Part shown: piece by piece, positions 2,800 through 64,000 of the stretch | How positions within the stretch are numbered: the first letter of the stretch is position 1 | Layout: the number at the start of each line of letters is the position of its first letter | Assembly (NCBI GenBank): GCA_049700315.1 | Contig: JBNAVN010000003.1 | Coordinates: 8,724 to 72,723 of the forward strand | Source: a bacterium | Lineage (GTDB): Bacteria; Hydrothermota; Tepidihabitantia; SM23-42; JAOAFX01 | Direction of reading: 5' to 3' | DNA length: 64,000 nucleotides | Made by a program: the position numbers and the translations under genes | The notes under the pieces: generated by a model | Seen by the model: only the letters and a program-made list of their open reading frames with translations | What the model was told of the DNA's origin: nothing | Database searches by the model: none

Positions 2800-3303
2800 C
2801 TAATCCATTTTTAAAAGTTCCAAAAATTTTTCTCTCAAGCCAAATTTATTCAAAATTTCATCAAGCCTTGTTTTGTCAATATCTGTCTGTGTAAGCAATT
2901 TTTCAATCTTTTCCAAATCTTTTTTCCTTCCTGCCCTTAAAAATATTGCTATAAGATATTCAGGATTAACTATTCTAATTTTTATTCCTTCATATTCTAC
3001 TTCTTTAGCATTTTCAACTGCCTCTTTTTCCAGTTCATCTGCAGGAATAAATTGGACTGGAACACCATCAATAATAATATGCTCGCCTTTCCAGGAATAT
3101 CCCTGAGATTTAAGATAATCAAAGATAGGGGTAAGTATTATTAAATTTTTTTCTTTTTCACTCATTGAAATTACAAATATATCTAAGTCATATGTTAAAA
3201 AGGGTTCAACATAAAATAATGCGGCGATACCACCACCTATAGCATAATCAATAATTATTCCCTTATCCTTTAATTCATTGATAACCTTCAGTGTCTCTTT
3301 CAT
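2800..3303 (-). CDS. Minimal nucleotidyltransferase (Pol beta superfamily fold)
   Basis: hG[GS]-x(9-15)-DhDh signature in IIIDYAIGGGIAALFYVEPFLTYDLDIFV. 167 aa. Confidence 0.5.
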   Translation of the reverse strand: MKETLKVINELKDKGIIIDYAIGGGIAALFYVEPFLTYDLDIFVISMSEKEKNLIILTPIFDYLKSQGYSWKGEHIIIDGVPVQFIPADELEKEAVENAKEVEYEGIKIRIVNPEYLIAIFLRAGRKKDLEKIEKLLTQTDIDKTRLDEILNKFGLREKFLELLKMD

Positions 3304-8919: not shown

Positions 8920-9773
8920 ATATGCAAAAATGGTTATATTGTCCGGTCTGCAGAGGAAGTTTGGTGAAGAAACAATCAGTAATTCTTTGCAAAAAGTGTG
9001 GCTGGCAACATTATAAAAATCCTCTGCCTTCAGTTGCCGGATTTATAATGAATGCTGATGATGAGATATTATTGATCAAACGCGGTGCTGAACCAGAAAA
9101 AGGCAGATGGGCACTACCTTCGGGCTTTATTGAACCCAATGAAACACCAGAGCAGGCAGTATTGAGAGAATTGAAGGAAGAAACTGGGTTGAATGGCACG
9201 ATAAAAAAGATGCTCGGAATTTATGTTGAACCAACAAGGTTCTATGGAGATGTGCTTCTCATTGGTTATGAGATTGAAGGCACCGGTGGCAAGATCAGAC
9301 CCGGCTCAGATACCACAGAAGTCAATTTCTTTTCCAAAAACAAACTGCCAAGAATTCCATTTTTGAGCCATCGCGAAATCATCAATCAGGGAATCAATAG
9401 TCAAACAGATAATGTCTATGTTGAAGTCCTGAAATCAAAGATTTCTGAAGCAGTCATTACTGATACAATTCTCTTTTATAAGGGAAGTATGGGTATAGAT
9501 GCAAAAATTATGCGGTCAGCGCACATTAAGCCCGGAGAAAAGGTGCAGGTTTTAAATTATGATAATGGCGAAAGGCTTGAAACCTATGTTATCCCTGAAA
9601 AACCAGATTCAAGGAAGTTCATCCTTTATGGTCCGGCTTCATTAAAAGGTAAGAAGGGACAGAGATTATGCATACTCTCTTATGCATTTGTTGCCCAGAA
9701 TAAAGCAGAATTTTTTAAGCCGAGGATTGTCATCCTTGATACAAAAAATTTCATCAAAAAAATCAAATCCTAA
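8916..9773 (+). CDS. Fusion protein: zinc-ribbon NUDIX hydrolase (NudC-like) N-terminal domain plus aspartate 1-decarboxylase (PanD) C-terminal domain
   Basis: CPVCRG...CKKCGW zinc ribbon. Nudix box GRWALPSGFIEPNETPEQAVLRELKEETG. C-terminal 110 aa align with PanD, including the Gly-Ser self-processing site (YKGSMGID), NG.R..TY and GPASL regions. One continuous ORF, no internal start for the PanD part. Confidence 0.7.
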   Translation: MNMQKWLYCPVCRGSLVKKQSVILCKKCGWQHYKNPLPSVAGFIMNADDEILLIKRGAEPEKGRWALPSGFIEPNETPEQAVLRELKEETGLNGTIKKMLGIYVEPTRFYGDVLLIGYEIEGTGGKIRPGSDTTEVNFFSKNKLPRIPFLSHREIINQGINSQTDNVYVEVLKSKISEAVITDTILFYKGSMGIDAKIMRSAHIKPGEKVQVLNYDNGERLETYVIPEKPDSRKFILYGPASLKGKKGQRLCILSYAFVAQNKAEFFKPRIVILDTKNFIKKIKS

Positions 9774-10701
9774 AAAATTTATATATGGACCGGTCCCTTC
9801 GCGACGGCTGGGCTATTCATTAGGAATTGATTTACTCATTCCCAAGACCTGCACTTATAATTGTATTTACTGCCAGTTAGGAAAGACAACAAATCAGACA
9901 CTGAAGCGAAAAAAATATGTTCCATCAAGAATGATTTTGAAAGAACTGAGCCATTTGTTAAGAACAAAAACCCGCATTGATTATATCACATTTTCCGGTT
10001 CTGGTGAACCAACCCTGAGTTCAGATATTGGACTATTAATAAAGAAAATTAGACGACTCACAAAAATCCCTGTTGCAGTTATAACTAATTCTTCCTTAAT
10101 GCACAAAAAAGATGTCCAGAAAGGTCTATTAAGTGCGGATGTCATCCTGCCCACACTCACCACGGTTCAGGAAAAAACATTCAGAAAAATTCATCGGTCA
10201 ATCCCGGCGATAACTGCCAAAAAAATCGTTAATGGGTTGATTCGGTTTCGCAAATGTTACAAAGGGAAAATCTGGCTTGAGGTAATGCTTATCAAAGGGT
10301 TGAACGATTCAAAACAGGAAATTCAGGCATTAAAAAAGATAATAAGAAGAATCAAGCCTGATAGAATCCATCTAAATACTGTAGTAAGACCACCAAGTGA
10401 GAAATTTGCCCGACCCTTATCCATATCTGAACTGAAACGGATAAAGAAAATCATCGGAAGGAATTGCGAAATTGTAGCAGAATTCAAGAAACCAGGCAAT
10501 GTTTCAAAATTTAAAGACAATAATGAAATGGTCTTACAATATTTAAGACGAAGACCTGCAACCCTTATTGATATGAACAAAAGTCTGGGCATCAATCAAA
10601 GTGAATTGATAAAAAATCTTGAAAGACTCCTAAAATCCAGAAAAATCAAAAAGAAGAGATATGGAGGTAGAATTTTTTATGAAACAGTCAAAGATAGTTG
10701 A
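9682..10701 (+). CDS. Radical SAM protein (function unknown)
   Basis: CTYNCIYC (CxxxCxxC) cluster motif preceded by GPVPSRRLGYSLGIDL. True start likely near 9760-9775 (non-ATG), as the tracked ORF overlaps the upstream gene by 92 nt. Confidence 0.65.
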   Translation: MHLLPRIKQNFLSRGLSSLIQKISSKKSNPKKFIYGPVPSRRLGYSLGIDLLIPKTCTYNCIYCQLGKTTNQTLKRKKYVPSRMILKELSHLLRTKTRIDYITFSGSGEPTLSSDIGLLIKKIRRLTKIPVAVITNSSLMHKKDVQKGLLSADVILPTLTTVQEKTFRKIHRSIPAITAKKIVNGLIRFRKCYKGKIWLEVMLIKGLNDSKQEIQALKKIIRRIKPDRIHLNTVVRPPSEKFARPLSISELKRIKKIIGRNCEIVAEFKKPGNVSKFKDNNEMVLQYLRRRPATLIDMNKSLGINQSELIKNLERLLKSRKIKKKRYGGRIFYETVKDS

Positions 10702-53389: not shown

Positions 53390-54106
53390 ATGGAAGATCT
53401 GATCTGTATCTTAAGATGCAAAGGCGGTCTGAACGCCCGTAACCTCTTTGTATACAAAGGTCCCAGAGATTGTTGGTTGAACTGGACACTTTTCGGTGGC
53501 AATAAAGAGTGTTATTACGGTTGTATTGGAGATGGAAATTGTGCTGAAATATGCCCACAAAAGGCAATAACCATGGACAATGACCACCTGCCAATTATCA
53601 ACTCAGATAGGTGCGATGGCTGCGGTGTCTGCGTGAAAGAATGTCCCAGGAATGTTTTAGAATTGATTCCCAGATCTCAATTGATATATCTTGCCTGCAA
53701 ATTATTAGATGGAAAAGAGAACTCAAAACACATCTGCAAAATGGCTTGCTCGGGCTGCAATATATGCGTTGATATTTGCCCTTATGAAGGAGCAATTGAA
53801 ATAGAAAATGCTCTGCCTAAGATAAATTATGATAAATGCAATTCTTGTGGTATGTGTTTTCGCAAGTGTCCTGCAAATTGTTTTATTGACCGTGCCGTAG
53901 CAAGACCTTACGGAATCATTTCAATGAAATGCGATGGCTGTGGTGAATGCGCCAAGGTCTGTAAGTTTGATGCAATTACCGGGGAACTAAATCAAAGACA
54001 TATTATTGACAAAGAAAAATGCATTGGATGTGGCAGATGTTTTGAGGCTTGTCCAATAAGGGCAATTACAATGGTTGGTGCACTTGGTTATACAAAGGTT
54101 GCTTGA
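53390..54106 (+). CDS. Polyferredoxin (six 4Fe-4S cluster motifs)
   Basis: Six CxxCxxCxxxCP-type motifs (CAEICP, CDGCGVCVKECP, CSGCNICVDICP, CNSCGMCFRKCP, CDGCGECAKVCK, CIGCGRCFEACP). Confidence 0.75.
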   Translation: MEDLICILRCKGGLNARNLFVYKGPRDCWLNWTLFGGNKECYYGCIGDGNCAEICPQKAITMDNDHLPIINSDRCDGCGVCVKECPRNVLELIPRSQLIYLACKLLDGKENSKHICKMACSGCNICVDICPYEGAIEIENALPKINYDKCNSCGMCFRKCPANCFIDRAVARPYGIISMKCDGCGECAKVCKFDAITGELNQRHIIDKEKCIGCGRCFEACPIRAITMVGALGYTKVA

Positions 54107-54127
54107 AGATTTAAACAGGAAGGAGTT

Positions 54128-54940
54128 ATGATTATTGAATATGCCAATTCAAAGCTTAGCCAGGCAGATATTGTAATCATCGGTTTTCCTTACGACCGAA
54201 CCTCTTCATTTATTCCTGGCTCAAGATTTGGACCGCGATATATAAGGATGTGCACAGAAAATATTGAATGGTTTTCACCATATCAGAATCACTCAGTAGA
54301 ATCTGTGAAGATTGCAGACCTTGATGATTATGAATTTAAGACTGATGATCAGTTAAAAGAGATGGAAGAAAAGGCATTTGAATTGTATAAAAAGGGTAAG
54401 AGAGTTATATTCCTGGGTGGTGAGCATACAATCTCTTTTCCAATAGTGAAGGGGATAAACAGGGTAATCAAGAAATTTTCAATTATACATTTTGATGCCC
54501 ATGCTGATCTAAGAGATGATTATCATGGCGAAAAGATAAGTCACGCAGCAGCCTTACGAAGGGCAAGTGATGTTGTGGGATTAGAGAACATTTATCAATT
54601 CGGAATTCGCTCTGGCACCGAAGTTGAATTTTCTCTAAATAAGAATCTATTTCGATTTTCAGCATACCAACCACTGAAACAAATAATAGATAGAATTACT
54701 ACGCCAGTCTATGTAACGATTGATGTAGATGTCCTTGACCCTTCGGTATTGCCAGCCGTGGCAACCCCAGAACCAAATGGCATAACTTTCAAAGAATTGC
54801 TTGATTGTCTGTTGCTCTTAAAAGATAAAGAGATCATTGGGGCAGATATTGTGGAATACAATCCTCTGGCAGCATCACCCTATGCCTCTGGTTCAACTGT
54901 TGCGGAGATACTGAGAGAATTGATATTAATAATGAAATGA
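54128..54940 (+). CDS. Agmatinase/ureohydrolase family protein (arginase fold)
   Basis: Mn-binding motifs HFDAHADL, DVDVLDP, SGGEH-like GGEHTIS. 270 aa. Confidence 0.75.
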   Translation: MIIEYANSKLSQADIVIIGFPYDRTSSFIPGSRFGPRYIRMCTENIEWFSPYQNHSVESVKIADLDDYEFKTDDQLKEMEEKAFELYKKGKRVIFLGGEHTISFPIVKGINRVIKKFSIIHFDAHADLRDDYHGEKISHAAALRRASDVVGLENIYQFGIRSGTEVEFSLNKNLFRFSAYQPLKQIIDRITTPVYVTIDVDVLDPSVLPAVATPEPNGITFKELLDCLLLLKDKEIIGADIVEYNPLAASPYASGSTVAEILRELILIMK

Positions 54941-54976: not shown

Positions 54977-56827
54977 ATGACATTTTTGTTGATATTGTTA
55001 TCAAATCAGGAATTTTTTGGCTTGGACAATAAACAGGTATTTTGTCCTGAACCGGTTTATGCGGAATCAACTCATTCATACAATGTGCTACATTATTTCA
55101 TTGACCTTGATCTACCAATGACATCAAGATATCTATCTGGCGCAGTCACGATTGCCATGCGCAGTAATATAAACAATCTGAATATAATTGACCTTTATCT
55201 TGCAGGATTGAATGTTGATTCCATAAAAGTTGATGGAGTAACATCAACCTACACTCATACTGGAGATACACTACTTGTTAACTTACCAGTTCCCTATAAT
55301 CAGGGCGACTCATTCAATGTAAAAGTTGGCTACAGTGGAACCGCATCAGGCAATATGGGCTATCTGTATTATCAAAGTCTGCATCCAATATCATATACCC
55401 TGGGATGTCCTTTTTCAGAAAAACGGTGGTTCCCATGTTATGACCGTCTATGGGATAAGGCAGACTACGGTGTTGAATTTTACATTACTGTCCCAGATTC
55501 ATTCACAGTCTGTGCGACTGGTGAATATCTGGGTAAAGATGTGTCTCAGGGTTACGCAACTTATCATTGGAAACACAATTATCCTGTTTCCCCATATTTA
55601 ATTCATTTTGCATCAAGTATTTATACAACATATTCAGATTGGTATTATCCAGCACCAGGTGAAAGTGTGGAAGTGAAATACTATTTCTGGCCCAATGATA
55701 GTATTGCCGCAGCAAACGCATTCTCGTTAACAACTAACATGCTCTTTTTCTATGATTCATTGTTTGGTGATTATCCATTTGAACGGTATGGAATGAATGT
55801 AGTTAATCCGTTTGCCTATGGTGGTATGGAACATCAAACAATGAGCACAATCCACAGACAATGGCTTATCAATAATGACTATTATGGTATGGCACATGAA
55901 TTGTCCCATCAATGGTGGGGCGATATGATAACCTGTTTTGGCTGGCAAAATGTCTGGCTTAATGAAGGTTTTGCTACATACTGCGATGCACTCTACAAAG
56001 AATACAGAGAAGGACACAATGCATTCATAAATTTGATGCTCTCCCGGTTGAACGCATACTTTAGTGCAGAAAATTCAACGCCTCATCCAATCTACAATCC
56101 ACCATCTAACTTAATATTTGAATGGGGACACAGTTATTGCAAGGGTTCCTGGGTATTACACATGATCCGTTATCTTTGTGGTAACGACAGCATTTGGTTG
56201 AACCTTATGTCAACTTATCGTGATTCATTCGCCTATAAAAATGCCTCAACCGATGATTTGAATATGATAATGAATCAGGTTTTAAACAGCAATTATGATT
56301 GGTTTTTTGATGAATGGGTTTATAATATGGGTTATCCATACTACAGTATTGTATGGGGTAAAACATATGAACCGCCAAACTGGCGCCTTGTGCTTGATAT
56401 CACCCAGATTCAGACAATCGGACCCGCAGTATTTCATATGCCTCTACCCATCAGTATTTATTTTTCAAGCGCGGATACAATCGTTGTTCTCCAGATAAAT
56501 CAGTCTCCCCAGCACTTTGAGATTGTTCTAAATCAAGAACCAACCGCCATTGTTGTTGACCCTGAACATTGGTTAATTCAGAAGAATTTAGTCACGGGTA
56601 TAGAAGAATATGAATCTACGAACTGGTTTGGTGATTTGACCGTTTCCTCAATCAATAAAGAAATAAAAATGAAATTTCTTGATCCTCAGCGTATCAAAAT
56701 CTATGATGTTACAGGAAGGTGTGTTTTGGAAAGGCTTACAAGAAAATTAGATTTTACTCCTGCCAATGCGGGTGTTTACTATGTAAATATTGATAGAATT
56801 TTTAAGAAAATAATAATCGTGAAGTGA
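54977..56827 (+). CDS. M1-family zinc aminopeptidase with C-terminal T9SS-type sorting domain
   Basis: HELSHQWWG plus WLNEGFATY (HExxH-x18-E). GAMEN-like GGMEH. C-terminal beta-rich IYDVTGRCV...AGVYYVNI resembling Por secretion CTD. Confidence 0.7.
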   Translation: MTFLLILLSNQEFFGLDNKQVFCPEPVYAESTHSYNVLHYFIDLDLPMTSRYLSGAVTIAMRSNINNLNIIDLYLAGLNVDSIKVDGVTSTYTHTGDTLLVNLPVPYNQGDSFNVKVGYSGTASGNMGYLYYQSLHPISYTLGCPFSEKRWFPCYDRLWDKADYGVEFYITVPDSFTVCATGEYLGKDVSQGYATYHWKHNYPVSPYLIHFASSIYTTYSDWYYPAPGESVEVKYYFWPNDSIAAANAFSLTTNMLFFYDSLFGDYPFERYGMNVVNPFAYGGMEHQTMSTIHRQWLINNDYYGMAHELSHQWWGDMITCFGWQNVWLNEGFATYCDALYKEYREGHNAFINLMLSRLNAYFSAENSTPHPIYNPPSNLIFEWGHSYCKGSWVLHMIRYLCGNDSIWLNLMSTYRDSFAYKNASTDDLNMIMNQVLNSNYDWFFDEWVYNMGYPYYSIVWGKTYEPPNWRLVLDITQIQTIGPAVFHMPLPISIYFSSADTIVVLQINQSPQHFEIVLNQEPTAIVVDPEHWLIQKNLVTGIEEYESTNWFGDLTVSSINKEIKMKFLDPQRIKIYDVTGRCVLERLTRKLDFTPANAGVYYVNIDRIFKKIIIVK

Positions 56828-56839
56828 TGTCTGTATTAT

Positions 56840-57385
56840 TTATTGGATTTTTTGTGCTGCAGTAATACCGGCGCGAAATGCCTTGACATTGAGTTCTTCT
56901 GTTCCTTTTGGTACCCGAGATAAGATAGCGGATTCCACTGCTTCTTTTGATACTACCCCGGCCAATTCTGTAATTACTCCTAAGGCAACAATATTGGCAA
57001 CAAGTGTTTTCCCCACTTGGTTTTCAGCAATTTCTGTGATGGGTAAAGAATAAATCTTGAATTTTCCTTCTGGACATTTAGTCACATAACCTGAATCAAT
57101 CAAAATAATCCCATTTTCCTTAACATCACGGGCATATTTGTCACATGCCTCCTGAGTAAAGGCAAGCAGAAAATCAATATTAACCGCTTTTGGGTAATCA
57201 ATGTCTTCATCACTGATAATTACCTCAGAGCGACTTGAACCACCCCTTGCCTCAGGTCCATAAGATTGACTCTGAGTAGCATTCTTGCCATCATATATTG
57301 CTGCAGCCTCAGCAAGAATCTTACCGGCAAGAATCAATCCCTGACCACCAGAACCACTTAATCTGATTTCATAACGAAAAGACAC
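56840..57385 (-). CDS. 2-oxoacid:ferredoxin oxidoreductase gamma subunit
   Basis: RLSGSGGQGLILAGKILA N-terminus typical of POR/KOR gamma. 181 aa. Confidence 0.75.
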   Translation of the reverse strand: MSFRYEIRLSGSGGQGLILAGKILAEAAAIYDGKNATQSQSYGPEARGGSSRSEVIISDEDIDYPKAVNIDFLLAFTQEACDKYARDVKENGIILIDSGYVTKCPEGKFKIYSLPITEIAENQVGKTLVANIVALGVITELAGVVSKEAVESAILSRVPKGTEELNVKAFRAGITAAQKIQ

Positions 57386-57421
57386 GGCACCTCCCTTTCA
57401 ATTTTCTAATACCTTGTTGCA

Positions 57422-58234
57422 CTATTCCTTCCTGACCCTTTCCACCAATTTCTGATATTCTTCACAAAATTCAGGTCTCTCAATATCATGAAGCACACCC
57501 ACTGTGATCTTACCCCGCTTTTCTGCATCAGGTAATTTTCGTGCGGTTTCTACAGGAATACTGTTTTCCTTATAGTATTTAAGCATATCAACAGCGTTGC
57601 CAAGACGATTTGGCCTGCCATAATATGTTGGACAGGGTGACAATACTTCAATCAAAGAAAATCCCTTTTTCTGTAATGCCTTTTCTATCAGTTTGTCAAG
57701 TTGAGTTGCATGATAACAGGTAGAACGGGCAACAAATGAAGCACCTGCAGCAATTGCCAGAACAGAGATATCAAAATCTGGTTCTGTGCTACCGTATGGC
57801 GCAGTGCTTGCTCTTTTACCAAACGGGGTTGTCGGCGAAACCTGCCCTCCAGTCATTCCATAAATGTGATTATTGTATAATAAGACAGTCATATCAAGAT
57901 TTCTACGCGCTGCATGGATAAAATGATTGCCACCAATGGCAGTTGCATCACCATCACCGGTTACAACTATGACCTTAAGTTTTGGTTTGGCAAGTTTCAA
58001 CCCGGTTGCAAAAGCAATTGCCCTACCATGGTGTGTATGTAAAGTATTAAAATCCATATAACCCGGTGTTCGGGAAGAACAACCAATACCAGAAACAATC
58101 GCCACATCATCCTTCTGGATTTTTGCACGGTCTATAGCCCTGAGCATTGCCTTCATTATTATACCACAGCCACAACCCGTGCACCAGATATGAGGGAATT
58201 TATCAATCCTTAAATATTTCTTATAAGGAAACAT
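57422..58234 (-). CDS. 2-oxoacid:ferredoxin oxidoreductase beta subunit (TPP-binding)
   Basis: WCTGCGCGI N-terminal Cys motif. GDGDATAIGGNHFIHAARRN TPP-binding motif. Confidence 0.85.
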   Translation of the reverse strand: MFPYKKYLRIDKFPHIWCTGCGCGIIMKAMLRAIDRAKIQKDDVAIVSGIGCSSRTPGYMDFNTLHTHHGRAIAFATGLKLAKPKLKVIVVTGDGDATAIGGNHFIHAARRNLDMTVLLYNNHIYGMTGGQVSPTTPFGKRASTAPYGSTEPDFDISVLAIAAGASFVARSTCYHATQLDKLIEKALQKKGFSLIEVLSPCPTYYGRPNRLGNAVDMLKYYKENSIPVETARKLPDAEKRGKITVGVLHDIERPEFCEEYQKLVERVRKE

Positions 58235-59363
58235 CTCTTATTTTCTCTAAAATTTCCTGAGGTGTGATTAGATTTCCGTCAACCCTGTTCACCTTCACTA
58301 CCTTGGTCATTGTCGCACATTCAACCTCCTGAGCAACCTGTCCCAGATTCATTTCCGGAACCACAAATTTCTTGATCTTCTTTGAAAGATTATTCAGTGC
58401 CTCATAAGGAAAAGGCCAGAGTACCAATATCTGCAATAAGCCAACTTTCAAACCCTGCGCCCTTGCCTCATGCATTGCCCTTCTTGCAGAACGAACACTT
58501 GAGCCATAGGAAACAAGGCATATTTCAGCATCTTCAAGGAATTCAGTCCTGTATGAAATAATCTCATTTTTGTACCTCTCAATCTTACGGTTTATCCGAC
58601 GGTACAACGCATCAATTTTTTTTGGATCGTTCGTCGGAAACCCAGTTTCATCGTGACTTAGACCTGTTACATTAAATCGATAGCCGGTTCCGTAATGGGC
58701 AATCGGTGGAATATCAGAATCAGTGGACTTGTAAGGAAGGTATTTTTCTGGTGGATCCGTAGTAAGAATTCTATCAACTATTTCTATTTCCTTATCATCA
58801 GGAATTACGATTTTTTCATTGATATGGCCCACAATTTCGTCAAGTAAGATAATCACTGGAACACGGTATTTCTCTGAAAAATTGAATGCCTTAATTGTCC
58901 ACCCATAAGTTTCCTGGACTGTTGACGGAGCTACTGCAATGACTGGATGGTCACCATGCGTGCCCCACCGTGCTTGCATTACATCTGCCTGGGAAGGAAG
59001 TGTAGGTAATCCTGTACTGGGTCCCCCACGTTGTACATTGACCACAACAACAGGGACTTCTGCCATTGATGCGTACCCAATATTTTCCTGCATTAAAGAA
59101 AATCCCGGTCCACTTGTTGCAGTCATTGACTTTAATCCTGCCATGGAAGCACCAATCAGTGCTCCCATTGAGGCAATTTCATCCTCCATTTGAATAAAAA
59201 CGCCACCCACTTCAGGTAATCTCTTTGATAGCACCTCAGCAATCTCTGAAGATGGCGTGATTGGATAACCCGCAAAAAAACGCATACCAGCAACAATTGC
59301 TGCCTCAGCACAGGCTTCGTTGCCAGTCATTATCTTTATTGCTTTACCTTCTGCTTTTCTCAT
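58221..59363 (-). CDS. 2-oxoacid:ferredoxin oxidoreductase alpha subunit
   Basis: MTGNEACAEAAIVAGMRFFAGYPITPSSEI N-terminus typical of OFOR alpha. 380 aa. Confidence 0.85.
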   Translation of the reverse strand: MRKAEGKAIKIMTGNEACAEAAIVAGMRFFAGYPITPSSEIAEVLSKRLPEVGGVFIQMEDEIASMGALIGASMAGLKSMTATSGPGFSLMQENIGYASMAEVPVVVVNVQRGGPSTGLPTLPSQADVMQARWGTHGDHPVIAVAPSTVQETYGWTIKAFNFSEKYRVPVIILLDEIVGHINEKIVIPDDKEIEIVDRILTTDPPEKYLPYKSTDSDIPPIAHYGTGYRFNVTGLSHDETGFPTNDPKKIDALYRRINRKIERYKNEIISYRTEFLEDAEICLVSYGSSVRSARRAMHEARAQGLKVGLLQILVLWPFPYEALNNLSKKIKKFVVPEMNLGQVAQEVECATMTKVVKVNRVDGNLITPQEILEKIRDVSL

Positions 59364-59411
59364 AATATGAGCTAAATCCTGATACCCTGATACCCTGATA
59401 TTCCACCCATC

Positions 59412-59615
59412 TCATATCTTCTCCACCTCAATCGCAAAATCAGGACAATATATTTCACACAATTGACAACCAGTGCAGGCTTCAGGATTGGCGACTTTTG
59501 CCTTATCTCTTTCCATTATCAGAACTTTCTTTGGACAAAATGCAACACATATTTCACAACCTTTGCACCATTTTTCGTTGATTTTCACTTCAAATTTCTG
59601 GGTGGAAACTGACAT
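59412..59615 (-). CDS. 2-oxoacid:ferredoxin oxidoreductase delta subunit (2x[4Fe-4S] ferredoxin)
   Basis: CKGCEICVAFCP and CTGCQLCEIYCP motifs. 67 aa. First gene of the four-gene operon. Confidence 0.7.
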   Translation of the reverse strand: MSVSTQKFEVKINEKWCKGCEICVAFCPKKVLIMERDKAKVANPEACTGCQLCEIYCPDFAIEVEKI

Positions 59616-59704
59616 ATATTTTATATTATATTCAAAAAATTCAATATGTCAAGAAATTTTTTCTTGACTTACATAAATGTTCAAATATAATTACAACAGA
59701 GAAA

Positions 59705-60178
59705 ATGCTGATTGTTTTTCTTTTGTTAACTCAGGTGTCCGATTCCATAGAACTACAGAAACCATTAACTGCATTTTATGAACAAGGATTTAAAGATGGA
59801 AAACATCTCGCTGAGAAAAAGTTCTATACAGGCTATTGTGTTGGTGGTTGTCTTATTGGCGCAAGTGGTGGATGTCTTGGCGCATTAGCATGCATTAAAA
59901 TATCAAAGAGTGCTGATTTGGATGGAATAGTTTACTGTTCAGCTGCAGGTAGTTTTGTTGCAGAAGTATTATTGTATCGCAAGCCCAGAATAGATACTCT
60001 TCCCGGAAACATAACATCAAGAGATTCTTTGTACATTAAAGAAATTATTGATGGCTACAATAAAATTGCCGGACCAAGAAAGACTATATACTCGGCTGGT
60101 GGCTGGATTATCGGTAGTGCCCTTTCTTTAGGTATTATGTACTTTGTCTTTGGAGTTCTGAGCGGAATTGATATATAG
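59705..60178 (+). CDS. Hypothetical membrane/secreted Gly-Cys-rich protein
   Basis: N-terminal hydrophobic segment. GYCVGGCLIGASGGCLGALAC glycine-zipper-like stretch. C-terminal TM. Confidence 0.35.
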   Translation: MLIVFLLLTQVSDSIELQKPLTAFYEQGFKDGKHLAEKKFYTGYCVGGCLIGASGGCLGALACIKISKSADLDGIVYCSAAGSFVAEVLLYRKPRIDTLPGNITSRDSLYIKEIIDGYNKIAGPRKTIYSAGGWIIGSALSLGIMYFVFGVLSGIDI

Positions 60179-60209: not shown

Positions 60210-63119
60210 CTATTCGTAACACATAGATGCTATAAGTTTCTTGATCGTTTCGCTTACACCTGTACGGGTGTCACAAAATCTTTTGTACAATTCTTCTTCA
60301 TTACCAAAATTCATTGTTAGCACCACATTCTTTAAGCCTTCTTTTGTTATTACATCTGTTGCGCCGATTGTCAAACGATAGATATCCCTGATTGTTTTAA
60401 GAAAATTAAAACTATCAGATAAAAAATTAAATTCACTCTGATATCTGGGCATTTTCTGCGCAAGAATCTCAAACAATTTTGAATTTACGGGTTCAGTGAT
60501 TTCCAAATGTGCTTTCAAAATAAGCATTATCATTTCTATATCTCGTAGACCACCGGGGCATTCCTTTATGTCTATTCCTGAGTTGATATATTCTTTTTCC
60601 GAATGGCGTGAATTCATCTCATTTATCATTCTCTTTATATAAATCTCTTTTTTATCAAAGATTAGAGGCTGAATAATTGTTCTTAGAAACTCCCTTGCAA
60701 ATCGATGTGATCCTGCAATCAGACGCGCACCGAGTATTTGTGATTGTTCAATAAATATATCGGGTCTATCTTCATTAAGTAATTGTTCAATTTCTCTTAT
60801 AATGATTACAAATCTTCCGAAATATTCAGCAAATCTATGATGAGGGATTGTTCCGCGTTTTATTATCTCAGCATTCATTTTGCTTATTACTTTGTTAGAA
60901 TACGAAAGCAAATCAGGATCTTCTGAATTCAGTAACACAATTAAATCATAATCATCATCATAAGCCTGTTCCCTTGCGTGCCCGCCTACCGCAAATATTG
61001 CCAGTACATCCTCCGTAATAATTCTTCTGCTGAATTCTACATCAGTCTCTTCACGGCAAATATCATAGAGAGTTCTAATGTACTGGTCAGCAAATTCAAT
61101 ATATTCGGTATTTGTGAGGTGAATTGGAGCCCCTCTCAAAGTGGCAAGGGATACTCTGACCATCTCAAAATCATAATATTCGCCAAGTTTTCTTATTTTT
61201 TCGCTAAATGTGCGCATTGAATTTGTATCACTATAAATCCCCTCGGCAAATTCCCTTAAAAAATCAGGGTCTTTCAAAAATCTCAAGCATTCAGGATATT
61301 TGTTTGTTATTCTTACAAAAAATCTTTTGAGAAAATAGCTGGATGAAAGATATATTTGAATCAAATTTTTCAACTCATCAACAATTGTAGCAACTTCCTC
61401 TTCATATATCCTTGCCTCTAATGTCTGAATATATCGCTTGAGATTCTCTGGTGTCTCAAAAGAAAACAACTTATTTAAAAGGTCTGGATACCGTGAAAAA
61501 ACAAAGGCAATGTGCCTGACGGCATCCGGAATCAAATCTATATTGTTTAGAAATTCCTTATTCAACATTTGGTATATACCAGTAGAACATTTGTTCTTAC
61601 CCAGTGCGGAAAGAAAAGTAAGTAGTGTATAAAAGTCAAATTTCAACCATTCAATATATTTTTCCACAATCGCATTTTGCTCCAAAGGAACCAGTCTGTA
61701 AAAATCATCTGAGAACTTGCTCAATACTCGCTCACTTCCAAAATCATCAAGTATATCATCCCAGTAAGAAGTTCCTCTGAAAAATCTAAATTTCTCAATA
61801 AAATCGTAAACTAAATTCCCTTGATAGTTACTCTCAAATAATTGAATAAATAACGAATTTTTTTTCAAATGATATTTCAGATCATCTAACAAATGTGGTA
61901 TAACTCTACGAATATTCTGAATATGCTCATAATAATGTACGAGAAGATGCTCTTCCGCATGACACAGTCCGATATCTGTATATCCAACTAATTGGGCAAT
62001 TTTTCTCATATTCTTAAGGACAGCATCATCTATAACAATTTCTTCGTCCTGGGTAACAAACATCTGATAAAGATAGCGAAATATTTCAATGAAGGTTAAT
62101 GATTTCTCAAGTATGTCATATTCTGCTGATCTTTTAGGATCAACCTGTTTCAATTCATCTATGATGTCCCAGGCGTTTACCTTCCAGATATTAAAGACTG
62201 TTTTTTTAGCGGAAATAATGCTCTTTGTTGGTCTCAGACCGTCTTCTTTGAAATTTATGTACGATTTACTGATAGGTCGAGCTAAAAGAGCGCGCACTTC
62301 ACCAAGGATACCACGTAAATAACCTTCATGATATTTCATATCACCATCTGGATGATAAAAATAATGTAAAATTACCTCATTCTGAAATTGTTTAAATAAC
62401 TCATTATCTCCAACAATAACTGCTGCCCCGAGCATTTCATTTATAATCACGAAATCCCTTAATTCCTGTTTTAATGACTCCTTGAACTCATCAATTGAAG
62501 CAGAATAGTGCTCACTTCCGATATGTTCAGATAAGTGAAAGTGCAATGATACTGCATATTTTAACATCTCTTTACTCATTCTTGCAATCGCCTTATTAAA
62601 ACAAATACGATTGTTTGAACCATCGTCAATAATTCCTATGTCAATATCATCCTGGTCAGATTTTGTGCCTACACCCATAATAACAAACTTCGGAAATTCC
62701 ATTTTTTCTTCAAATATGTTTAGCAATTCTTCAATATACGCAGCGGTCAGATAGCGAAATTGATTCCCTGCACGGCGCATAAACTGTTTGTAAACCTGCG
62801 TTCTATCAATATCAGAAGAGAGCAATTCCATCTTCAACATATCAACCAACTGTCGGTTCATCCATAATAGATGAAGGGCAAAATAAGCACCAATGAAATT
62901 GAATTTTTCTTCTGTTGACTTAGCGACACCAGCCACAATTTTTAGTTCTTCTGGAAAATTATTTGAAGGATGTAAGAAATGAATCATTTCACGCTTCTTA
63001 CATATCTCAATGTTTTCCAACATCGGTTCGTAAAATCGCTTCACCGCCTGAAGTTGTTTGCGATAATGATTACCAAACTCTTGTGTCTTTTCAGAAACAA
63101 TCGTTAAAAAGTCTTTCAT
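60210..63119 (-). CDS. GlnE/GlnD-like tandem nucleotidyltransferase (putative protein adenylyl-/uridylyltransferase), 969 aa
   Basis: Two Pol-beta NTase signatures (VIMGVGTKSDQDDIDIGII and FAVGGHAREQAYDDDYDLIVLL). GGLRDIEMIM resembling the GlnE GGxRDIEF motif. No HD domain. Confidence 0.45.
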   Translation of the reverse strand: MKDFLTIVSEKTQEFGNHYRKQLQAVKRFYEPMLENIEICKKREMIHFLHPSNNFPEELKIVAGVAKSTEEKFNFIGAYFALHLLWMNRQLVDMLKMELLSSDIDRTQVYKQFMRRAGNQFRYLTAAYIEELLNIFEEKMEFPKFVIMGVGTKSDQDDIDIGIIDDGSNNRICFNKAIARMSKEMLKYAVSLHFHLSEHIGSEHYSASIDEFKESLKQELRDFVIINEMLGAAVIVGDNELFKQFQNEVILHYFYHPDGDMKYHEGYLRGILGEVRALLARPISKSYINFKEDGLRPTKSIISAKKTVFNIWKVNAWDIIDELKQVDPKRSAEYDILEKSLTFIEIFRYLYQMFVTQDEEIVIDDAVLKNMRKIAQLVGYTDIGLCHAEEHLLVHYYEHIQNIRRVIPHLLDDLKYHLKKNSLFIQLFESNYQGNLVYDFIEKFRFFRGTSYWDDILDDFGSERVLSKFSDDFYRLVPLEQNAIVEKYIEWLKFDFYTLLTFLSALGKNKCSTGIYQMLNKEFLNNIDLIPDAVRHIAFVFSRYPDLLNKLFSFETPENLKRYIQTLEARIYEEEVATIVDELKNLIQIYLSSSYFLKRFFVRITNKYPECLRFLKDPDFLREFAEGIYSDTNSMRTFSEKIRKLGEYYDFEMVRVSLATLRGAPIHLTNTEYIEFADQYIRTLYDICREETDVEFSRRIITEDVLAIFAVGGHAREQAYDDDYDLIVLLNSEDPDLLSYSNKVISKMNAEIIKRGTIPHHRFAEYFGRFVIIIREIEQLLNEDRPDIFIEQSQILGARLIAGSHRFAREFLRTIIQPLIFDKKEIYIKRMINEMNSRHSEKEYINSGIDIKECPGGLRDIEMIMLILKAHLEITEPVNSKLFEILAQKMPRYQSEFNFLSDSFNFLKTIRDIYRLTIGATDVITKEGLKNVVLTMNFGNEEELYKRFCDTRTGVSETIKKLIASMCYE

Positions 63120-63854
63120 TTAATGTTGTAGTATTTTCAAAACAAAATCGGGAATCTCAATATTGCCGTAACCAATCTCAGGTGCAAGTCTTAAAATTGT
63201 GAGAAGTCTATCCTTAAATTCCATTTCTCTGTTTATCCCTATGATTTTTTGCTGAACATACTCCCAGAATTTCTCGTTTGTCAATTCTCTTAAATAAACG
63301 ATGTATATATGCCTTATATCAACACTCATATCTACTTTTAAGTCAATGTCCTTTACAAGACGGGGAGAAAGAACTTTTTCCACAAATAAATCATAGGGGT
63401 GGGCAAGATATAGCTCAATTGGAAATTTACCATCTTTTAATTCAATTACGGCAGCATAAGGCTTTAGCTTTGAAATCTTTTCAGTATAGAACTCAAAAAC
63501 ACCTTCCCTCAAAATATAATCAACATTAAACCAGGTCCTGGTAAATGACCATGCAGTATGAAAACTCGTAATTTTTTCACTTATCATCAGTTCATCATCA
63601 TAATTTACAATCTGAAGATTGTGTGATTTGGGACGGTTAATAAATTCCTTCAAACGATTTGCATTTTTGAATAACAAATCAATATCCCAGAATGCTGTAT
63701 ATTTTAAATAACCCTGGATTAATAGAGATAAAGCACCTATTATAATAAAGTTTAAATCGTTTTTATCCTGTAATTTAGATACTTCAGCAAGAACTCTAAT
63801 AAAATTCAATCGCCTCTTTTCATCAACAAAATTCAACCAATCAGGAACTGACAT
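63120..63854 (-). CDS. Minimal nucleotidyltransferase-like protein, translationally coupled to the GlnE-like gene
   Basis: FIIIGALSLLIQGYLKYTAFWDIDLLF fits hG[AS]-x(n)-DhDh. Its stop TAA directly abuts the ATG of the 969-aa gene. Confidence 0.4.
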   Translation of the reverse strand: MSVPDWLNFVDEKRRLNFIRVLAEVSKLQDKNDLNFIIIGALSLLIQGYLKYTAFWDIDLLFKNANRLKEFINRPKSHNLQIVNYDDELMISEKITSFHTAWSFTRTWFNVDYILREGVFEFYTEKISKLKPYAAVIELKDGKFPIELYLAHPYDLFVEKVLSPRLVKDIDLKVDMSVDIRHIYIVYLRELTNEKFWEYVQQKIIGINREMEFKDRLLTILRLAPEIGYGNIEIPDFVLKILQH

Positions 63855-64000
63855 ACTTCATCCCTTAAATATGAGAATTGAAGATAATCTGTGCCAGATT
63901 TTCATAATCTCTGCTATCAATGAAATGCAATTCATATTTCATTATAATTAAAGAAAAGAATAAAGTCAAGGTGGGCATAAAAGAGCAATTGTTTTAAAAC

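Follow-up and report, generated by a model that had tools for sequence, protein, structure and literature searches.

We analysed a 64,000-nucleotide stretch (the window) of contig JBNAVN010000003.1, assembly GCA_049700315.1, from a bacterium of the Hydrothermota. Towards the end of the window, on the minus strand, lies a gene for a 969-aa protein that resembles GlnE, the adenylyltransferase of glutamine synthetase (GS). It is preceded by the gene of a 244-aa nucleotidyltransferase (NTase), NT244, and the genes of a 2-oxoacid:ferredoxin oxidoreductase (OFOR) stand just downstream in the order delta-alpha-beta-gamma (korD, korA, korB, and korG; 56840..59615, minus strand; Table 1). Among relatives, the linkage of the GlnE-like gene to OFOR genes, above all to that of the gamma subunit, crosses phyla and survives rearrangement.

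Table 1. Coordinates of the features discussed; positions are those of the window unless a related locus is named.
Feature	Coordinates	Strand	Basis
969-aa tandem GlnE-like NTase, whole gene	60210..63119	-	Open reading frame (ORF) list, Pfam, homologues, model
N-module, aa 20-416: NTase + helical HEPN-type domain	61872..63062	-	Homologous to C-module (hhalign)
N-module NTase motif GVGTKSDQDDIDIGIID, aa 149-165	62625..62675	-	Family alignment
All-helical linker, aa 417-597, with conserved FRFFRGTSFWDDILD motif	61329..61871	-	Alignment, model
C-module, aa 598-968: NTase + PF08335 GlnD_UR_UTase/HEPN-type domain	60216..61328	-	Pfam, NCBIfam, PDB profile
C-module NTase motif GGHAREQAYDDDYD, aa 712-725	60945..60986	-	Family alignment
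GGLRDIE motif, aa 856-862	60534..60554	-	Aligned with GAGGIREIEF of E. coli GlnE
NT244, 244-aa MenT/AbiEii-fold NTase (DUF6036)	63120..63854	-	ORF list, Pfam, model
Promoter-like site TTGACT-17-TATAAT (11/12), upstream of NT244	63941..63969	-	Consensus match only
korD, OFOR delta subunit, 2x[4Fe-4S] ferredoxin	59412..59615	-	Closest model OorD
korA, OFOR alpha subunit	58221..59363	-	NCBIfam PRK08659, 582.7 bits (cut-off 411)
korB, OFOR beta subunit, binding thiamine pyrophosphate	57422..58234	-	Closest model 2-oxoglutarate:ferredoxin oxidoreductase beta
korG, OFOR gamma subunit, POR domain PF01558	56840..57385	-	Pfam, NCBIfam, PDB 3on3
Perfect sigma-70 consensus TTGACA-16-TATAAT (12/12), upstream of korD	59625..59652	-	Consensus match
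157-aa ORF between GlnE-like and kor genes	59705..60178	+	No family match
Promoter-like site (11/12) before the 157-aa ORF	59664-59691	+	Consensus match
Lone gamma-type genes in related loci	L038, L041, L047, L060, L064, L069: about 9300-10000; L085: 7436-7999		No alpha/beta genes on same strand

The GlnE-like protein and its small partner

The 969-aa protein is an internally duplicated NTase-plus-helical module, which is the design of GlnE. The duplication is evident from the profile-profile match between its two halves, in which hhalign aligned aa 20-416 to aa 598-968 with a probability of 99.2-99.4% and E values of 2e-19 to 2e-21. As in GlnE, each module carries a glycine motif followed by an Asp-x-Asp pair (G151/D158/D160 and G712-G713/D723/D725). 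Across 51 sequences, with identities as low as 38%, neither the Asp pairs nor the glycine motifs vary, and the family alignment places V150, G151, D157, D158, I159, and D160 of the N-module and G712, G713, R716, D723, and D725 of the C-module among the invariant residues. The N-module is more conserved than the C-module, and it differs from GlnE in a glycine loop shorter by four residues and in the family-specific invariant blocks HFHLSEH, YSASIxEY, and HEGYLRGILGE. In the linker motif, residues F446, F447, W453, and D455 are invariant; by analogy, this helical linker would occupy the position of the regulatory linker of GlnE and may be compared with its R domain.

PF08335 is the sole Pfam domain of the protein (aa 828-962, E 1.5e-17), and no Pfam model matches the N-module. 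This domain is a HEPN-type helical, partner-binding domain attached to NTases of the GlnE/DrrA class (PMC3710099). The C-module profile matched PDB 1v4a with an E value of 8.6e-6. An AlphaFold model computed with 51 homologues reached a pLDDT of 89.8 and a pTM of 0.77, and its only significant Foldseek matches in the PDB were to E. coli GlnE, one for each half of that enzyme: 1v4a (E 2e-9, TM 0.70) and 3k7d (E 1e-7). The fold searches do not report the aligned region; the N- and C-modules were assigned to these two structures from hhalign and sequence profiles. Single-sequence searches of PDB sequences returned nothing for either the 969-aa or the 244-aa protein. By structure, the large protein stands nearest to GlnE (twice) and DrrA, all of them protein-tyrosine AMPylators. 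The AMPylation domain of Legionella DrrA/SidM (PDB 6yx5, 3nku) shares its fold class but is a single module, fused to guanine nucleotide exchange factor and phosphatidylinositol 4-phosphate-binding domains in a secreted effector, and is only 10% identical.

An earlier note on this DNA, made from the letters alone, had described most of this architecture, and what it said of the sequence holds throughout. The two NTase signatures that it pointed out are GVGTKSDQDDIDIG (aa 149-162) and GGHAREQAYDDDYD, with a spacing of 565 aa; its GGLRDIEMIM motif is present at aa 856-865; and Pfam agrees with it that the protein has no HD domain. The structure prediction that it proposed as a check returned a GlnE-type fold matching both GlnE halves, in line with the duplication seen by hhalign. 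The abutment that it saw between the two genes is equally real, as NT244 ends in CAT TAA and the large gene starts, without a change of frame, at the ATG that follows immediately. Its suspicion that the 244-aa NTase-like partner is a genuine gene and not a spurious extension is borne out by homologues, a Pfam threshold, and a confident fold.

For NT244 there are 98 homologues, whose locus tags neighbour that of the large gene. It scores 28.0 bits against DUF6036 (PF19502), over aa 18-74 only, the Pfam gathering cut-off being 23.6, and its structure model (pLDDT 91) is a confident NTase fold. Since the 969-aa and 244-aa proteins have 330 and 98 homologues, respectively, neither ORF is a chance frame. 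An AAGGGA Shine-Dalgarno-like element precedes NT244 and none precedes the 969-aa gene; this, together with the TAA-ATG abutment, suggests that the two genes are translationally coupled. NT244 contains the G...DxD and downstream Lys/Asp motifs of AbiEii/MenT type, and because G40, D57, D59, D86, D112, K160, S163, R165, D179, and R181 are invariant, it is probably catalytically competent. NT244 is a DUF6036 member with the fold of MenT1, MenT3 (TglT), MenT4, and AbiEii (DUF1814), without the contextual hallmarks of those toxins: it has no cognate antitoxin, no match in a defence database, and no match to the AbiEii profile, and its constant place is between korG and the GlnE-like gene, inside a metabolic operon. 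The G+C content is 0.33-0.34 at the two genes and about 0.38 across the remaining window.

A cross-phylum linkage to OFOR genes

The window OFOR is of the Kor/Oor type, with 2-oxoglutarate as its putative substrate: its closest profile and structure matches and its D-A-B-G gene order are those of the four-subunit 2-oxoglutarate:ferredoxin (acceptor) oxidoreductases (OorDABC; PDB 8ys5, 3g2e; gamma 3on3). Its nearest named models are OorD, 2-oxoglutarate synthase alpha and beta, and OorC. The alpha subunit alone passes a curated cut-off, that of a generic 2-oxoacid model; beta (326.8 against 364 bits), gamma (231.6 against 235 bits), and delta fall just under their equivalog cut-offs. The gamma subunit matches PDB 3on3 with an E value of 9e-68 (roughly 70% identical by eye), followed by OorC of 2-oxoglutarate:acceptor oxidoreductases. 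PDB 3on3 is a structural-genomics entry named keto/oxoacid ferredoxin oxidoreductase gamma subunit, so that structural coordinates for the likely partner or target are already available.

A word-index search yielded 330 homologues of the 969-aa protein, most of them ~970 aa long, almost all full length and unnamed, from metagenome-assembled genomes of WOR-3, TA06, KSB1, Latescibacteria, and similar lineages. A search of 1.84 billion representative proteins with the N-module (aa 1-560) gave 146 clusters at E <= 1e-3. Nearly all of them are ~960-1010-aa proteins with two matches each, or pieces of these; the N-module is restricted to this family. We regard the family as rare, uncharacterised, and vertically inherited.

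The gene neighbourhood was compared in the 80 best loci from species-representative genomes, plus several obtained by exact look-up, which were searched with the window proteins. Gene calls in these loci are crude (the longest ORF from the first start codon), and intergenic distances are therefore approximate. The 80 loci span about ten candidate phyla, and no cultured organism is among them. The commonest neighbours of the GlnE-like gene are KorG (49 loci), KorB (46), and KorA (43), followed by NT244 (26). KorG lies within 1 kb of the GlnE-like gene in 48 of the 80 loci, within 10 kb in 32 of the 40 that have at least 4 kb on both flanks, and directly upstream on the same strand in 44 of the 67 that have at least 1.5 kb upstream. 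The genes typically run korD-A-B-G, NT244 if present, and the GlnE-like gene.

The linkage takes four arrangements, with the kor genes upstream and co-directional (37 loci), downstream and co-directional (the window and L008), convergent (L058, L065, and L070), or divergent (L057). It is kept in relatives with only 22-26% identity to the window N-module (L083 and L085). In seven loci (L038, L041, L047, L060, L064, L069, and L085), a lone gamma-type gene with a POR domain stands directly upstream; at the first three, a full, more distant kor operon is divergently next door. In two others, the GlnE-like protein itself is extended at its C-terminus by a KorD-like 2x[4Fe-4S] domain to ~1090 aa (L037:5790-9065, from an unclassified uncultured bacterium, and L044:10001-13294, labelled Eisenbacteria); the L037 ferredoxin domain is 41% identical to the window KorD and matches Pfam Fer4 with an E value of 2.6e-11. 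The GlnE-like protein and KorA co-vary in their identity to the copies in the window (Spearman 0.66, n=46), which fits vertical co-inheritance. Where kor genes are lacking, the GlnE-like gene is found beside sdhA/sdhB (succinate dehydrogenase/fumarate reductase), phosphoenolpyruvate carboxykinase, or OadB (oxaloacetate decarboxylase beta).

At all 26 loci that contain it, NT244 immediately precedes the large gene and shares its strand. Setting aside one copy that seems to be frameshifted, the gaps range from -3 to +80 bp, and the two proteins diverge in step (Spearman 0.89). It is absent from most lineages and was seen in WOR-3, Stahlbacteria, TA06, some Zixibacteria, KSB1, and Cloacimonadota.

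The earlier note had recommended a comparison of gene neighbourhoods among relatives. Of the two linkages that it set against each other, to glnA/glnB and to defence islands, neither was found there; the kor linkage, the most informative feature of the neighbourhood, had escaped it.

Heterodisulfide-reductase-like genes also occur within 10 kb of the GlnE-like gene at 11 loci (L003, L006, L008, L014, L015, L020, L021, L029, L031, L044, and L057); the recurring set consists of an HdrA with a fused MvhD/FlpD domain, a CCG-domain HdrD-like protein, and an HdrC-like protein. In KSB1-type loci, nucleoside diphosphate kinase, FolE2, and butyrate/acetate kinase recur downstream.

Proposed function and competing explanations

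GlnE, GlnD, and DrrA are classic examples of protein nucleotidylylation. By analogy with GlnE, we tentatively propose that the GlnE-like protein is a reversible nucleotidylylation switch acting on the OFOR complex or working with its gamma subunit, a reading that we place slightly short of an even chance. One module, probably the canonical C-module, would attach a nucleotidyl group (AMP or UMP) to a side-chain hydroxyl in the OFOR complex or in gamma itself; the other would take it off again. The point under control would be the 2-oxoglutarate/succinyl-CoA/ferredoxin node. NT244 would be a lineage-specific third component, translated just ahead of the large protein and coupled to its translation, that may prime, regulate, or adapt it.

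A more specific version is appreciably less probable and in our view doubtful: that a three-NTase system, with two GlnE-like sites and a MenT-fold partner, reversibly AMPylates or UMPylates 2-oxoglutarate:ferredoxin oxidoreductase, probably on gamma, and so gates oxidative versus reductive tricarboxylic acid (TCA) flux in many uncultured anaerobic phyla. If true, the OFOR class would gain its first known covalent on/off switch, a carbon-side equivalent of the GlnE/GlnD switch of nitrogen metabolism. A GlnE-like design tied to OFOR in WOR-3, TA06, Stahlbacteria, Zixibacteria, KSB1, Cloacimonadota, Eisenbacteria, and Acidobacteriota suggests an undescribed post-translational control of a key TCA/reverse-TCA step. 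It would assign a role to a hypothetical protein kept in many candidate phyla, and would place a MenT/AbiEii-fold NTase, NT244, in an apparent housekeeping rather than toxin role. The prediction is concrete, namely a nucleotide adduct on a Kor subunit. Literature searches returned nothing relevant on AMPylation or nucleotidylylation of the OFOR class, on GlnE-OFOR links, or on the GlnE-like family.

Several observations weigh against the proposed switch. The OFOR is linked to it through gene neighbourhood, which does not separate a target from a sensor or a co-regulated enzyme. About 20% of the long-flank loci have no kor gene inside 10 kb, and the neighbours of distant ~970-1000-aa tandem-NTase subfamilies are quite different. 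In the window, the kor genes are preceded by a perfect promoter of their own, and an ORF on the opposite strand intervenes between them and the GlnE-like gene. A comparison of gamma subunits found no residue peculiar to GlnE-linked copies. Finally, D-x-R-L-R-P is the motif of the third catalytic strand in GlnE and GlnD, and the corresponding strand of the 969-aa protein departs from it, which makes the chemistry and the nucleotide specificity uncertain.

Two gamma-subunit tyrosines, Y42 and Y84, had been considered as candidate modification sites, as they differ in five unlinked paralogues. Y42 was rejected as evidence of a modification site because it is also present in the unlinked OorC and in PDB 3on3.

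Another explanation would make the protein a very divergent GS adenylyltransferase/deadenylylase, found near kor only since 2-oxoglutarate is the carbon skeleton of nitrogen assimilation. We consider it unlikely. The fold and the architecture are indeed those of E. coli GlnE (PDB 1v4a for AT-N and 3k7d for AT-C), with two tandem NTase and PF08335-type helical modules in one ~950-aa chain, and at one locus (L083) an aminotransferase and a glutamate dehydrogenase follow just downstream of the GlnE-like gene. The absent GS linkage is itself weak evidence, because glnE is normally not linked to glnA, E. coli included. The sequence profiles, however, speak against GlnE and GlnD alike. Identity to GlnE is 14-17%, and Pfam GlnE (PF03710) does not match at E<=1. 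The NCBIfam matches reach 25-56 bits against cut-offs of 519-1299: one is a weak match to GlnE (PRK14108, 24.8 bits, cut-off 724) and the others are partial matches to GlnD equivalog models over aa ~666-925 (51-56 bits, cut-offs 519-1299), with scores below a tenth of the equivalog cut-offs. This part of the C-module aligns with the N-terminal NTase and PF08335 of GlnD (E about 1e-15), but a second NTase module takes the place of the HD and ACT domains, neither of which was found in the 969-aa protein by Pfam. Because the profile tests fail and these domains are absent, we do not file the protein under GlnE or GlnD.

The neighbourhood points the same way. No GS or PII gene was found in the window or in ~90 related loci: E. 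coli GlnA and GlnB, used as tblastn queries, gave no match in the 64-kb window or any fetched locus, a search that a divergent GS-III could escape. The linkage that withstands rearrangement goes to OFOR genes and lone gamma subunits, not to nitrogen genes, some lineages carry an additional small NTase, and fusions to a ferredoxin domain are unexpected for a GS regulator. The earlier note had likewise seen no glnA or PII gene nearby and had doubted an ordinary GlnE; both judgements agree with these results. Its suggestion of a divergent protein-nucleotidylylating enzyme with a small NTase partner stands as regards the tandem GlnE architecture and the partner, and finds no support as regards a role in conflict.

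It is similarly improbable that the gamma-type protein is a sensor, binding CoA or acyl-CoA in a PII-like role, with the tandem NTase acting on some other protein whose gene is unlinked. Four lone gamma and GlnE-like pairs without alpha/beta genes nearby (L060, L064, L069, and L085) would suit such an arrangement, as would the contribution of domain III/gamma to CoA binding in related enzymes. Most loci, however, contain a complete DABG operon, the remaining lone-gamma loci have one next door, and the neighbourhood holds no alternative conserved target.

We give equally little probability to a non-protein substrate, whether through nucleotidylylation of a small molecule or cofactor, production of a nucleotide signal, or a function in OFOR assembly or maturation. 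NTase folds are chemically versatile, the nearest structural relatives of NT244 act on tRNA or antibiotics, and distant subfamilies adjoin nucleotide-sugar enzymes (UDPGP, GlmU-like). Against this stand the strong structural relatives of the large protein, all of them AMPylators of protein tyrosines, and the partner-binding character of PF08335 in that class (PMC3710099).

Least credible by far is the conflict-related option of the earlier note, a toxin-antitoxin or anti-phage module with NT244 as a MenT/AbiEii-like toxin and the large NTase as regulator or effector: NT244 does have the MenT1/TglT/AbiEii fold with intact catalytic residues, and one UniRef homologue of it is named 'AbiEii/AbiGii toxin family', but it lacks a match to the AbiEii Pfam model (PF08843) and an AbiEi or MenA neighbour, it is missing from most lineages, and the genes hold a fixed place in a core metabolic operon across phyla and co-diverge with it. 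This reading was dropped because PADLOC matches neither protein, phages carry no copies of the large gene, and plasmids gave weak glnD matches only.

Distant subfamilies and other features of the window

Distant relatives of the tandem NTase have other fixed neighbours. One subfamily (L084:6497-11750, L086:7238-12165, and L090:7105-12137) consists of ~975-1000-aa tandem NTases with 22-24% identity to the window N-module; a Cu-oxidase_4 (PgeF/YfiH-like) gene is always upstream and a UDPGP-family uridylyltransferase always downstream. In a second (L088 and L089), the tandem NTase is followed by isochorismatase, a GlmU-like gene, and GlmS. These neighbours suggest that tandem NTases form a broader class attached to varied metabolic enzymes, and hint that tandem GlnE-like NTases may be a wider class of metabolic switches. 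A bona fide AbiEii/AbiEi pair at L087:1485-2796, located ~3 kb upstream of one distant homologue of the tandem NTase, is probably unrelated to that gene.

Within the window, the promoter-like sites before korD, NT244, and the 157-aa ORF suggest three separate transcription units; the linkage here is one of neighbourhood, not of an operon. The 157-aa ORF is glycine-rich, occurs at the same position only in the closest relatives (L004, 65%; L005, 48%), and is probably outside the system. A few kb downstream of the minus-strand kor genes, at 53390..54940 on the plus strand, are genes for a 238-aa polyferredoxin with five Fer4 stretches and an arginase-family protein, and between this pair and the kor genes lies an M1-type peptidase-like ORF (54977..56827). 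A second stand-alone small NTase, a 167-aa DUF2204 protein with the motif GGGIAALF...DLDIFV, is encoded at 2800..3303 on the minus strand and adjoins a TPR/PEGA protein.

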